Below are positions 41,754-57,719 of a stretch of DNA of 64,000 bases, piece after piece (the stretch's first letter is position 1; every line of letters starts with the position of its first letter). The stretch comes from Anaerolineales bacterium (GTDB taxonomy: Bacteria; Chloroflexota; Anaerolineae; JAAEKA01). A program made the translations under genes and the position numbers. The DNA is taken from the NCBI GenBank assembly GCA_034432445.1, contig DAOUBX010000025.1, positions 4,071 to 68,070 on the forward strand, read 5' to 3'. The notes under the pieces were generated by a model. It was not told the DNA's origin. It did not search any database and saw only the letters and a list, made by a program, of their open reading frames with translations.

Positions 41754-42314
41754 TCACGCGCGCACCAGGATCCAGGCCACCGCTTCGGCCAAGTCGGCCA
41801 CCACCGGGACGTCGTAACCGCTAGCGCGCAGGCTGGGCAATTGCGCCTGGCCGCGGCCGGTGCGCACGAACAGCGGCTGGCAGTCGACCGCCAAGGCCGC
41901 CTCGACGTCGCTGACCGCGTCGCCGACAAAGTACGAGGCCGACAAGTCTAGCCCCAGGTCGCGAGCCGCTTGCAACAACATCCCCGGTTGCGGTTTGCGA
42001 CAGCTGCACCCTTCGTCTGGCCGATGGGGACAGGCGTAAATGCGATCCAGGCGACCACCTTGGGCAGCCACCTCAGCGGCGATACCCCGGTTGATGGCCC
42101 ACATCTGGTCCAGCGACATCAGGCCCCGCCCCACCGCAGACTGATTGGTGACGACCACGACGGCAAAAGAAGTGGCGGCCAACCGCCGCAAAGCCGCAAA
42201 GACACCCGGCAAGAACCGGACATCGCCCCAGGACAACACATACGAGGGGGGATTTTGATTGATCACGCCGTCGCGGTCGAGGAAGACCGCGCGCCGGAGG
42301 CCGTTGTCAGGCAT
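41754..42314 (-). CDS. gmhB: D-glycero-D-manno-heptose-1,7-bisphosphate 7-phosphatase (HAD family)
   Basis: HAD motifs (AVFLDRDGVIN and a Zn-binding C-x-H-x...C-x-C). Start trimmed to MPDNGLRR. Confidence 0.85.
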   Translation of the reverse strand: MPDNGLRRAVFLDRDGVINQNPPSYVLSWGDVRFLPGVFAALRRLAATSFAVVVVTNQSAVGRGLMSLDQMWAINRGIAAEVAAQGGRLDRIYACPHRPDEGCSCRKPQPGMLLQAARDLGLDLSASYFVGDAVSDVEAALAVDCQPLFVRTGRGQAQLPSLRASGYDVPVVADLAEAVAWILVRA

Positions 42315-42960
42315 GGTCAAGCTCACCCGGGTAGGCGTCGACGCGGCTGGCCAACAAGGGGTTGTCGCTCGGCGGCTCGCGGCGAATGCGCCGGCGCAAG
42401 GTGTAGAGCAGGACATGACAGATGACCATGAAAGCGTCCTCGACCTGCTCCATGCTAGACGAGGGGACGTGGACTGTGGCCTGGCAGATCTGGCGCAGCC
42501 GACCGCCGTCGAAGCCGCAGAAGCCCAGGGTGGCGGCGCCGGCAGCGTTGGCGAGCTCGATGGCCGCCAGCACGTTGGCAGAGTTGCCGCTGCCGCTGAT
42601 GCCGATCACCAGGTCGCCCGGCTCGACGAAGTTGCGCAGCGGCTCGACCATGCCTACCTGGTAGCCTTCGTCGTTGCTCCAGGCCATGAGCGCCGGCACG
42701 TTGTCCACCAGGGCTATGGCGCGAAAGCGGTGCCGGCCGGCCACGTTGGCGCCCTTGTTCAAGTCGCCGGCGAAGTGAGAGGCAATGGCGGCGCTACCCC
42801 CGTTCCCGCAGACGTAGACCCGCGCGCGACGGCGCCATGCCTCAAGCAACAAGTTCACCGCAGCCGTGATCTGGTTGGCCGGCAGCGCAGCAATGACGTT
42901 GGCCGCCCCCTCAAGATAGACGGTGACCGCCGGATCGACGTGTGAGTTGCTGACATCCAT
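42307..42960 (-). CDS. gmhA: Phosphoheptose (sedoheptulose-7-phosphate) isomerase, SIS domain
   Basis: SIS motifs (VCGNGGSAAIASHFAGD ... GISGSGNS). Overlaps gmhB by 8 bp. Alternative start at 42984. Confidence 0.85.
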   Translation of the reverse strand: MDVSNSHVDPAVTVYLEGAANVIAALPANQITAAVNLLLEAWRRRARVYVCGNGGSAAIASHFAGDLNKGANVAGRHRFRAIALVDNVPALMAWSNDEGYQVGMVEPLRNFVEPGDLVIGISGSGNSANVLAAIELANAAGAATLGFCGFDGGRLRQICQATVHVPSSSMEQVEDAFMVICHVLLYTLRRRIRREPPSDNPLLASRVDAYPGELDHA

Positions 42961-43027
42961 GCCTCGAACCTTTCCTGTTTGCATCTTTGCTACTCAGACG
43001 CCCGCCACTTATAGCCGATTGCAGACG

Positions 43028-56027: not shown

Positions 56028-56048
56028 GGTGAACTTCAGGGAAACGGG

Positions 56049-57719
56049 CTAAAGATAGCCCAGGCCGGCCAACTGCTGGCGAATGGCAGCTTCTTCTTCG
56101 GCCGACAAGCCGGCCACGGTGGCTGAGGGCGTGACACTGTAATCGGCGACTTGCACCGGTCGCAGCGGCGGCGCAAAGAGCTCCTGCAACACGCGGCCAT
56201 CCATGCCGGCGGCGACGGGCAAGCCCATGAGATGCAGCAGCGTGGGCGCCAGATCGACGATCGCTGCGCCCTCCAACCATTGGCCCTGGTGTACACCTGG
56301 GCCGGCGAGGACGAACAGACCGGTGGGCCGATGGGTGGCGCTGTACTCGCTGAGTTGGGCCAGCGGTAGATCGGTGACCAACGGCCCGGCGGCGTGCGAT
56401 CCGCCGGTGTAGGCGTCGTTCATCTCGACCAGGATATCAGGGATCTCGTCCAGGTGCGGGCCGTCGAACAGCTCTTCACGACGAATGGCTCGCCTGACGA
56501 TGGCGGCGCCGGTCTCCGGGTCGCGCAGGTCGGCCAACGCGGCCAAGATCGCGTCCCGCACCTCTTCGTAGGCCGCGCCCGGTGGCACGACGCCGTGTGC
56601 CTGCCGGCCTTGCAGGTTGACGATGATGCCTTCCACTGTGGGAAAGACGTTGAGACGGTACGCTTGGGTCCGCGTCCAATCGATGGCGTCCAAGTTTTGA
56701 TGACGGGCGAAGAGCGCAACGCGCGCCTCAGCGGGGAGCCGCGCGCGCAGGCGCTGCCGCCACTGCGTGGGCAGCCGCCGCCGCACCTGCGAGATGGCGC
56801 GGTTGGCCAGGCTGGGGTGTGATCGCGCGCCGGGCCGCAGAGCTAGCAGCCCTTGCGCGGCCAGCCAGGCGTTCAGGTGCACCTGCCGGTGGGGATAGGG
56901 CCCCATGCCGTGGTCCGACATCACCAACACAGCCGTCTCCGCCAGCGGTAGCACAGCCAACAAGCGGCCGATCTCGGCGTCCGCCACCTCGTACTGGTGG
57001 TTGATCACCTCGCCGAACTCCCGTGCGCCGGCAGCGTCGTAGGCGGGAAACGCAGGGTCTGTGTACTTCCAATACAGGTGAGGGATGTTGTCGGTGCTGT
57101 TCCACACCACCAACGCCAGATCATAGGGCTCGGCGGCCAGAGCCTCCAGCAAGATGTCGGTGTACTTGCGCACCCAGTAGTCGGAGGCCTCGACCGTCTT
57201 GGCTGGCGACAGCGAGAAGTTGAAATTGTCAGGCATGGCATCCCAGCGGCCAAGCCGAGCCGCCATCTCCGGCGGCCAGACGTGCGCCGTGGGGCCAAAA
57301 GGCCGAGGAAAGCCGCTGACCAGGAAGCCGTTGACCGGAAAAGGCGGATAGGTCATCGGAATGCCCACGGCAGCCACGCGGCGTCCGCGGTGCCCGGCAA
57401 ACTCCAGAAAGCTGCGGCCGACATAGTCACGGCTGGCGGCGAACTCATCGCGATAGGCGCCGTACTGGCGCAAATCCATCTTGCGGAACTGGTACACGCC
57501 ATGACGGCCGGGATTTTGCCCCGTGAGGAAGGTTACCCAGGCTGCGGCCGAGATAGGCGGCACGGTCGACGCCAGCGGACCGGCGACGCCGGCCGCCATC
57601 AACCGCGCCAAATGCGGCATGCGCCCGGCCTGCAACAGCGGGCGAGCAATGTCCCAAGTAGCGCCGTCGAGACCGATAACCACCACACGGGGGGACGACT
57701 GATCTTGCGATACACCCAT
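56049..57719 (-). CDS. Alkaline phosphatase-family protein, type I phosphodiesterase / nucleotide pyrophosphatase-like (PF01663)
   Basis: VVVIGLDGATWD ... ASTVPPISAAAWVTFLTGQNPGRHGV, the typical Thr-nucleophile region. Confidence 0.75.
   Translation of the reverse strand: MGVSQDQSSPRVVVIGLDGATWDIARPLLQAGRMPHLARLMAAGVAGPLASTVPPISAAAWVTFLTGQNPGRHGVYQFRKMDLRQYGAYRDEFAASRDYVGRSFLEFAGHRGRRVAAVGIPMTYPPFPVNGFLVSGFPRPFGPTAHVWPPEMAARLGRWDAMPDNFNFSLSPAKTVEASDYWVRKYTDILLEALAAEPYDLALVVWNSTDNIPHLYWKYTDPAFPAYDAAGAREFGEVINHQYEVADAEIGRLLAVLPLAETAVLVMSDHGMGPYPHRQVHLNAWLAAQGLLALRPGARSHPSLANRAISQVRRRLPTQWRQRLRARLPAEARVALFARHQNLDAIDWTRTQAYRLNVFPTVEGIIVNLQGRQAHGVVPPGAAYEEVRDAILAALADLRDPETGAAIVRRAIRREELFDGPHLDEIPDILVEMNDAYTGGSHAAGPLVTDLPLAQLSEYSATHRPTGLFVLAGPGVHQGQWLEGAAIVDLAPTLLHLMGLPVAAGMDGRVLQELFAPPLRPVQVADYSVTPSATVAGLSAEEEAAIRQQLAGLGYL

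Follow-up and report, generated by a model that had tools for sequence, protein, structure and literature searches.

A conserved Chloroflexota locus for a probable cell-envelope glycan with a GDP-heptose-type branch and an Asp-Lys phosphoglycosyl transferase

Among the closest described counterparts of the locus reported here is the GDP-heptose (HddA/WcbL) pathway (PMC10680097, PMC4691232). The locus fills positions 41754-57719 of a 64,000-nucleotide stretch of contig DAOUBX010000025.1 from an Anaerolineales bacterium (this whole stretch is referred to as the window) and comprises 14 open reading frames (ORFs), all on the minus strand. As in the GDP-heptose pathway, a putative GHMP heptokinase, GmhB, a GmhA-like isomerase and a short-chain dehydrogenase/reductase (SDR) of the GDP-sugar-epimerase type are encoded together in a surface-glycan locus. 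Unlike that pathway, locus and window lack HddC, the kinase gene is coupled to a phosphoglycosyl transferase (PGT) gene instead, a PF14907 gene is inserted and the host belongs to the Chloroflexota. Wzx/Wzy loci (WbaP, PglC) are similar in that a small canonical PGT, GT4 glycosyltransferases and a Wzy_C protein are encoded in one unidirectional block, and the large PGT of our locus has the WbaP architecture. However, neither Wzx nor Wzz is encoded here, the large PGT, with its Asp-Lys dyad, has none of the KFRxM, DPRxT and LRK-type motifs, and the locus is conserved like a housekeeping set whereas Wzx/Wzy loci are hypervariable. Linkage genes of wall teichoic acids and secondary polymers (TagA/WecG, MnaA) provide a third comparison: they are joined to the heptose module in Ca. 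Amarolinea but are absent from the window's own locus, where no LCP ligase was seen. We think it probable that the locus directs the assembly, on a lipid carrier, of a cell-envelope glycan with a GDP-heptose branch in Anaerolineae, by the mechanism proposed below.

The original prediction, made from the DNA sequence, had described an envelope-polysaccharide locus with a heptose branch. This description was upheld by the gene families (GmhB, heptokinase, GmhA-like) and by the conserved module in which they occur. The order of the 14 ORFs was as it had been given, and profile searches (Pfam, NCBIfam) matched each of them to the named family. A cell-wall or surface-layer glycan was likewise a sensible reading, as Chloroflexota are reported to be without lipopolysaccharide (LPS) and β-barrel assembly machinery (BAM) genes and to have layered, sometimes diderm-like envelopes whose extra layers are uncharacterised (PMC13319060). 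The label 'ADP-heptose synthesis' had to be revised, since the kinase of the locus is of the GHMP/HddA type and the ADP-type genes form a separate hldA-hldC-murJ cluster.

The kinase gene (44538..45650) encodes a GHMP kinase, probably of the HddA type (D-glycero-D-manno-heptose 7-phosphate 1-kinase type). Its best NCBIfam match was HddA with 190 bits (equivalog cutoff 600), and its PDB matches were 3k85, WcbL (4usk) and 4n3o with 157-200 bits, compared with 85 bits for fucokinase. The last gene of the block (41754..42314; NF006506 183.5 bits, cutoff 178) encodes the heptose 1,7-bisphosphate 7-phosphatase GmhB, a HAD-IIIA protein in which the DxDG motif and the C-x-H...C-x-C zinc loop were found; a gene call of 186 aa exists on identical contigs. 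Next to it lies the gene for a SIS-domain protein (42307..42959; SIS_2 66.8 bits), a GmhA-like sedoheptulose-7-phosphate isomerase that is conserved beside GmhB and matched gmhA best (TIGR00441 99.9 bits, cutoff 209). SIS protein, kinase and HAD phosphatase recur together in related loci. The first SDR gene (48611..49648), an extended SDR that had been called UXS-like, proved to be closer to GDP-mannose 3,5-epimerase (GME; best PDB match, 128 bits) and GDP-fucose synthase (Fcl; best NCBIfam match, 124.7 bits). In comparison with GME it possesses the Cys of the SSACVYP motif and YxxxK, while the position of the GME acid/base residue K217 is occupied by His, as in GDP-fucose synthase. This SDR points to a GDP-manno sugar. 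A further hint comes from the distant modules, where a PF00483 gene is located between the large PGT gene and the SIS gene; its best NCBIfam match was mannose-1-phosphate guanylyltransferase (159 bits), and it was present in at least 25 of the remoter modules. Judged from its gene content, the locus is built around a GDP-type rather than an ADP-type heptose branch.

The arrangement was compared with about 100 related loci in total, consisting of a close group (clade A), a second Anaerolineae clade in which the PF14907 protein is 36-39% identical, module L030 obtained from a 50%-cluster representative, and 79 metagenome loci. The last set was fetched by Asp-Lys PGT patterns. Synteny recurs in dozens of genomes, so the gene arrangement is not due to chance. 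In a scan of GTDB with one genome per species all 20 loci came from Chloroflexota (Anaerolineae, Caldilineales and Ca. Amarolinea aalborgensis), and every named relative of the large PGT with an identity of 45% or more likewise belonged to this phylum. The orthologue group of the PF14907 protein (44-81% identical) had a sole named member, from an Anaerolineae metagenome-assembled genome.

In the closest clade the whole locus was syntenic except for panD and sometimes the SIS gene. The order in clade A is PF01663, Wzy_C, GT4, sulfatase-like, small PGT, GT4, SDR, zinc-knuckle SDR, PF14907, HddA, large PGT, (SIS), GmhB, and the same genes flank the locus in relatives: enolase, a DRTGG protein and an ADP-forming acyl-CoA synthetase. 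Within clade A identities were about 80% for the small PGT at most loci (69-70% in two), 75-82% for HddA, 78-82% for the zinc-knuckle SDR, 66-71% for the large PGT and 46-57% for the PF14907 protein; the neighbouring enolase was 80-85% identical in the closest clade. Small PGT, HddA and zinc-knuckle SDR are therefore as conserved as the adjacent enolase, which argues for a housekeeping set and not for a variable O-antigen island. By these comparisons the locus looks housekeeping-like, chromosomal and vertically inherited. A horizontally acquired variable island was ruled out by the uniform G+C content (0.62-0.67 over the locus and the same in the remaining window), the constant chromosomal neighbours and the high identities.

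The core module consists of the small PGT, the zinc-knuckle SDR, [PF14907], HddA, the large PGT, [PF00483 nucleotidyltransferase], [SIS] and GmhB, with brackets marking genes that are not always present, and a Wzy_C gene is often next. The SIS gene occupied the position adjacent to gmhB in about half of the related modules. An insertion of SIS specific to the window was ruled out, as clade B, L013, L026 and many distant modules carry the gene too. Relatives have either of two paralogues in the slot of the first SDR, with 80-83% or 38-40% identity, and by sequence comparison this slot is the only place where serotype-like variation was seen. The clade-B locus of Ca. Amarolinea combines the module with TagA/WecG, UDP-GlcNAc 2-epimerase (MnaA) and UDP-ManNAc-dehydrogenase-like genes, a set that resembles the genes for the linkage units of cell-wall glycopolymers.

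One gene of the block stands apart. panD (48145..48522; TIGR00223 151 bits, cutoff 106) encodes an aspartate 1-decarboxylase that is intact, with its self-processing site G24-S25 (HYVG-SITLD). Because none of the roughly 100 related loci carries it, we regard panD as a passenger, an unrelated inserted gene specific to this genome; the same absence ruled out the idea that it supplies β-alanine for the glycan. A stable hairpin was noticed in the 88-nt gap between the GME-like SDR gene and panD (48523-48612, minus strand), with a minimum free energy (MFE) of -32.4 kcal/mol and z = -3.0.

The two PGTs are of different kinds. The small monotopic PGT (51073..51762; Bac_transf 198 bits; a longer ORF would begin with GTG at 51870) is canonical, with YKFRTM, DPRIT, LDEVPQ (the Asp-Glu dyad) and GPRPP all present. 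The large monotopic PGT (43048..44541; Bac_transf 130 bits plus CoA_binding_3) shows the WbaP architecture of four transmembrane (TM) segments, CoA_binding_3 and catalytic domain, and fold and reentrant-helix residues are kept; the canonical Asp-Glu dyad and the UDP-sugar motifs of monotopic PGTs (monoPGTs) are missing from it. Compared with solved WbaP, sLDELPQ is changed to gLDKLPQ, GPRP to GPRT, KFRSM to KFHTG and DPRIT to APRVT. The Asp-Lys pair is invariant in all full-length orthologues from both Anaerolineae clades. In monoPGTs the Asp-Glu dyad with its Mg2+ cofactor has been described as common to all members (PMC10519829, PMC10942596), and the donors of those characterised are all UDP-sugars (PMC10519829, PMC10942596, PMC11626204, PMC10541605).

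A census of the dyad drew on a set of 1.84 billion proteins and covered the 150 50%-cluster representatives that matched the large PGT best: 55 had Asp-Glu (DE), 32 Asp-Lys (DK) and four Asp-Arg (DR), and about 50 had no Asp. Set against the 55 DE sequences, the 32 DK sequences have lost R347, M349, K379, D383-P-R-x-T387, G390, R394, S397, E400, E424, Q447, G450-R451 and D461 and kept K293, D297, P310, D399, P402-Q403, G416-P-R418, P440-G441, Y464 and D473. From these residue patterns we take the DK proteins to form a subclass of their own in which the donor pocket has been rebuilt. In 72 of the 79 metagenome loci, a set selected by the PGT pattern, the kinase gene hddA lies upstream of the large PGT gene at a distance of less than 200 nt, and in the window the two overlap by ATGA. 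Because of this coupling to hddA, the likeliest role of the DK protein is to handle a heptose-derived, non-UDP donor. The roughly 50 representatives devoid of the dyad Asp (P0245-P0390; RG, RK, SK, AR and others) keep LP.L.NVL.G.MSLVGPRP and probably represent a sizeable set of pseudo-PGTs with WbaP architecture. An 822-aa database protein (P0471), called as a GHMP-PGT fusion, combines GHMP kinase domains with the N-terminal part of a large PGT. Either the fusion is natural or an overlapping hddA-PGT pair was called across a frameshift; if real, the fusion would be Rosetta-stone evidence for a functional link between kinase and large PGT.

Between the zinc-knuckle SDR gene and hddA lies the gene for the PF14907 (NTP_transf_5) protein (45778..46998; 179 bits, cutoff 31), which has the Pol-beta-type nucleotidyltransferase fold. 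The Pol-beta signature is present, residues K117-G118, D136, D138 and H193 are invariant, and an AlphaFold2 model reached a pLDDT of 89.5. Its fold neighbours, all weak (E ~1e-3), were ANT(2'')-Ia, MenT1, LnuA, TM1012 and FKRP, none of which is a sugar-1-phosphate nucleotidyltransferase. NCBIfam and PDB sequence searches gave no match. Distant homologues (29-33% identity) occur in PqqD/ScmC/radical-SAM contexts and not in glycan loci, and the family has also been found beside thymidylate kinase and PEP mutase (PMC8942020). Among enzymes of this sort only PsmN of the pseudomycoidin cluster has been studied; it is needed for the attachment of hexose to the phosphate on a lasso peptide, has the essential residues D134/D136 and models onto ANT(2'') structures (PMC6993621). 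The window protein resembles PsmN in its ANT(2'')-Ia fold models, in its D-x-D motif (D136/D138 vs D134/D136) and in that the gene adjoins that of a kinase whose product carries a phosphate. PsmN differs in belonging to a pathway for ribosomally synthesised and post-translationally modified peptides with phosphoserine as the substrate, whereas the context in the window is one of sugar phosphates; PsmN was compared by its published description and not by sequence. In a census of 43 well-covered modules 20 had only PF14907, 17 neither gene, five only PF00483 and one both, and both were also found in the partly covered modules L077 and L081. The PF14907 protein is accessory to the module.

Two further genes encode proteins of the alkaline-phosphatase superfamily. 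The first gene of the block (56049..57719) encodes a 556-aa PF01663 protein (147 bits) of the COG3379-type 'phosphohydrolase/phosphomutase'. Its orthologues are 62-83% identical and always form the first gene of the clade-A locus, and remoter relatives (~39% identity) likewise adjoin Wzy_C and GT4 genes; a PDB sequence search gave no relatives. The second (51762..53261; PF00884 168 bits) is a sulfatase-fold enzyme with Thr at the position of the formylglycine (FGly) Cys. As had been predicted, it is not an FGly sulfatase: T-K-P-V-A aligns with the C/S-x-P-x-R of solved sulfatases, and TWTKP[VA]AASILSG is invariant in eight orthologues. With Thr at the nucleophile position and the metal motif GDHGE..GEHG retained, the protein resembles the phosphotransferases EptA/MCR, LtaS and NPP (Thr nucleophile), and models of EptA and LtaS matched it weakly. 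A phosphoryl or phosphodiester transferase or hydrolase is the probable function. The decorating enzymes known so far work at the outer face, whereas both proteins of the window are without signal peptide or membrane anchor and are predicted to be cytoplasmic; the sulfatase-like protein has no TM segment and the PF01663 protein no hydrophobic segment at its N-terminus. Their most likely task is to form or trim phosphodiester decorations at the cytoplasmic side of the membrane. Although otherwise unrelated, the two proteins end in a common Q-L-x-G-L-G-Y-L (51762-51780, ...LHGLGYL; 56049-56067, ...LAGLGYL), which is conserved in the sulfatase-like orthologues and may be a docking or localisation tag.

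The second SDR gene (47008..48126) encodes a GalE-like extended SDR. Its 'Zn-ribbon' insert had been recognised correctly: about 35 residues with a Cys3-His/Asp knuckle (C132-x2-[H/D]...C165-x2-C168, conserved in 22 orthologues) are inserted between the catalytic Ser and YxxxK and split the Epimerase domain match into 4-131 and 170-345. The best PDB matches were UDP-Glc and UDP-GlcNAc 4-epimerases. Already noted as highly conserved in clade A, this is the most conserved protein of the module (60-70% in distant modules). Because its gene directly follows that of the small PGT in most modules, it probably supplies the UDP-hexose(NAc) donor of this enzyme.

Chain building would fall to the remaining three genes. 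The Wzy_C-domain polytopic membrane protein (54441..56027; PF04932 48.8 bits; ~12 hydrophobic segments; 51-54% identity in clade A) could, by sequence, be of the polymerase, ligase or O-oligosaccharyltransferase type; a Wzy_C gene also lies 3' of gmhB in the distant modules L030 and L043. Two GT4 genes are present, and not three as originally counted. GT4b (53349..54431) matched Glycos_transf_1 with 119 bits and Glyco_trans_1_4 with 123 bits and has orthologues of 61-64% identity. GT4a (49747..50943, a GT4 family match) probably starts with ATG at 50943; the annotated start, GTG at 51051, extends into a repeat element, and orthologues comprise 357-407 aa. The next GT4 gene, outside the interval (14782-16044), is glycogen-synthase-like and unrelated to the locus.

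Taken together, the following pathway can be proposed. The heptose phosphate would be activated by a PF00483-type guanylyltransferase, whose gene lies inside related modules and outside this 64-kb window, and the GME/Fcl-like SDR may epimerise the resulting GDP-heptose. The small PGT would prime undecaprenyl phosphate with a UDP-hexose(NAc) provided by the zinc-knuckle SDR, and the two GT4 enzymes would extend the chain. A heptose-phosphate step with a non-UDP donor would be taken by the large Asp-Lys PGT, which is translationally coupled to hddA, while the PF14907 protein and the two cytoplasmic alkaline-phosphatase-fold enzymes would make or edit phosphodiester-linked decorations. Outside the membrane the Wzy_C protein would polymerise or ligate the glycan.

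Other explanations have to be weighed against this pathway. The original prediction had the glycan built from ADP-heptose by way of the split rfaE genes. The split pair and murJ at 29701-32868 are real according to their profile scores: an hldA-like PfkB kinase gene and an hldC-like adenylyltransferase gene (31331..32868, minus strand; rfaE_dom_I 291 bits and rfaE_dom_II 173.9 bits, both just under the cutoffs) are followed downstream by murJ (29701-31497, minus strand; 347.7 bits, above the cutoff). The two proteins would need the GmhA and GmhB of the locus, and the best GmhB model carries a β-anomer name. However, the PfkB and CTP_transf_like genes of the window are found only at this place about 10 kb outside the locus, whose own kinase is GHMP/HddA-type, and neither hldA, hldC nor murJ was found in the flanks of any related locus. 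Profile searches of the locus revealed no GT9 (PF01075) heptosyltransferase, nor an HldD 6-epimerase (TIGR02197 78-81 bits for both SDRs, cutoff 274), and related modules hold the guanylyltransferase-like PF00483 gene. ADP-heptose as the building block is thus quite improbable. Similarly doubtful is a PF14907 protein acting as the missing heptose-1-phosphate nucleotidyltransferase, i.e. a non-orthologous replacement of HddC. In favour of this role, in all Anaerolineae loci, none of which has PF00483, the PF14907 gene immediately precedes hddA; module L030 shows the reverse, with PF00483 present and PF14907 absent; and PF14907-type genes recur by kinases (PsmK-PsmN; thymidylate kinase with Ppm), suggesting phosphorylated substrates. 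The clean replacement suggested by L030 was downgraded, as the module counts lack clean complementarity, with 17 of 43 modules having neither gene and L077 and L081 joining the one that has both. Furthermore, the SIS gene is often missing too, so that an argument from absence at the locus carries little; none of the fold neighbours makes NDP-sugars, their reactions being the adenylylation of hydroxyls or the transfer of phospho-alcohols; and with its 46-57% identity the protein evolves much faster than the pathway enzymes.

The product itself might also differ from the one proposed. GDP-heptose S-layer glycans exist in Aneurinibacillus, and the glycan could be linked to an S-layer or sheath protein, with the Wzy_C protein as an O-oligosaccharyltransferase (PglL/WsaB-like). 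The Wzy_C domain is common to O-antigen ligases and O-oligosaccharyltransferases, no Wzx or Wzz gene is present in the locus, and an 852-aa Ig-repeat surface protein is encoded divergently at 57900-60458. Polymerase, ligase and oligosaccharyltransferase are, on the other hand, not separable by sequence, and the Ig-repeat protein is not beside the locus in relative L029. As a conserved glycosylation target this protein was ruled out, since it is not conserved next to the locus, and a protein-linked product seems unlikely on the whole. The large Asp-Lys PGT, finally, could be a non-catalytic partner, scaffold or regulator of the small PGT, leaving a single lipid-linked primer. The dyad Glu is replaced although the dyad is described as universal (PMC10519829, PMC10942596), the protein has lost most of the donor-binding residues that canonical PGTs share, about a third of the 150 nearest representatives (~50) lack even the Asp, and a small canonical PGT accompanies the large one in nearly all well-covered modules. 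Against this stand Asp399, Lys400, P402-Q403, G416-P-R418, P440-G441, Y464 and D473, which show little or no variation within the DK group and resemble a selected active site, as well as the identity of 66-71% across clade A and the tight coupling of the gene to that of the heptokinase and not to that of the small PGT. We regard a non-catalytic role as a serious contender, though on the doubtful side. With a catalytic role, two lipid-linked primers, as originally suggested, are possible. A more specific proposal, which we put forward only tentatively and consider rather unlikely to hold in full, is that the hddA-coupled PGT represents a Chloroflexota-wide active subclass that has kept the Asp nucleophile, has Lys for the Mg2+-associated Glu and a rebuilt nucleotide pocket, and accepts GDP-heptose or a different derivative of heptose phosphate as its non-UDP donor; it would place heptose-1-phosphate on the lipid carrier or the growing glycan and, together with the PF14907 protein, build a heptose-phosphate outer-layer polymer.

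Several observations weigh against the proposed lipid-carrier pathway with GDP-heptose. A tblastn search with the L030 protein found no PF00483-type sugar-1-phosphate nucleotidyltransferase in the window, nor in 28 other loci, and we therefore assume that the gene for nucleotide activation lies elsewhere. Because SIS too is missing from many modules, the lack of a gene at a locus says little about its presence in the rest of the genome. HddA and GmhA score below the NCBIfam equivalog cutoffs, and anomeric and nucleotide specificity are unreadable from sequence. The nearby HldA and HldC could draw on the same GmhA and GmhB for ADP-heptose; the genome may, to go by its gene content, make both nucleotide heptoses from these shared enzymes. 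The locus itself encodes no Wzx-type flippase, chain-length regulator, ABC exporter or LCP ligase, and MurJ, about 10 kb away, is the only MOP-family member. The roles proposed for the PF14907 protein, both alkaline-phosphatase-fold enzymes and the Asp-Lys PGT are deduced solely from sequence and context. Lastly, six intergenic gaps of about 87-129 nt leave room for internal promoters.

These gaps also bear on the transcription of the locus, for which short gaps or overlaps throughout had been claimed. Overlapping junctions are indeed present, and the six longer gaps show that they do not extend throughout. The two reported ATGA couplings fared differently: the one at 44538 (hddA/large PGT) is a true ATGA overlap, while the one at 51762 reads TGATG, a 1-nt overlap of the sulfatase-like and small PGT genes that holds if the latter starts with ATG at 51762. 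SIS and gmhB overlap by ATGCCTGA, given a gmhB start at 42314. The likely true starts are 42314 for gmhB, 42959 for SIS, 50943 for GT4a and 51762 for the small PGT. A sigma-70-like promoter match (TTGGCA-17-TACAAT with TG, 10/12) lies at 57729..57757 on the minus strand, about 10 nt 5' of the first ATG. Three promoter-pattern matches were found in the region compared with 2.0 expected, i.e. chance level, and the scans for promoters and terminators stayed at chance level overall; it is the position alone of the site at 57729-57757 that is suggestive. Right after the gmhB stop two very stable hairpins without U tract (41630..41750, minus strand; MFE -64.7 kcal/mol, z = -7.2 vs shuffles) likely mark the transcript end or act as a stabiliser. 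An Rfam search gave tRNA as the sole match. A single transcript across the locus is plausible.

Some other features of the window were observed. The hldA-like and hldC-like genes overlap by 4 nt and run directly into murJ, so that ADP-heptose genes are coupled to a lipid II flippase gene in a phylum without LPS. A repeated intergenic element, about 110 bp long, is bounded by the inverted repeats AACTAyTCAGGTGCCGGGCACTTG and CAAGTGCCCGGCACCTGAgTAGTT, exactly 70 bp apart. Copies were located at 7515-7635, 19367-19487, 41510-41630, 50965-51085 and 57758-57878 and half copies near 49680 and 11677; its core GTGCCSGGCAC occurs 20 times in the window compared with 4.9 expected. Three copies flank or lie within the locus, and the copies at 19386 and 41529 are nearly identical. 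The element looks like a miniature inverted-repeat transposable element (MITE) or a repetitive extragenic palindromic (REP)-like repeat. A subtilase gene (Peptidase_S8; 24203-27454, plus strand) contains one in-frame TAG (25940-25942) just 5' of the catalytic GTSMATP serine motif (...PADVPYR*HYMFMGGTSMATP...); pseudogene formation, read-through or a sequencing error could account for the stop. An ORF of 573 aa next to alaS (19494-21215, minus strand) matched Baseplate_J weakly (35 bits) and may be a phage-tail-like remnant or a chance match.

As a whole the locus is an ordinary type of gene cluster; what stands out are its conservation, the Asp-Lys PGT subclass and the association with PF14907. 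In the literature searched we found nothing that linked heptose with the Chloroflexota envelope or a PGT with GDP-heptose. PF14907, an uncharacterised nucleotidyltransferase family, is placed in a carbohydrate context by its position here. [quoted passage not shown] For the phylum itself, a heptose-glycan module that is conserved at the level of enolase and occurs in every named relative examined is a good candidate for one of the extra layers of the Chloroflexota envelope.

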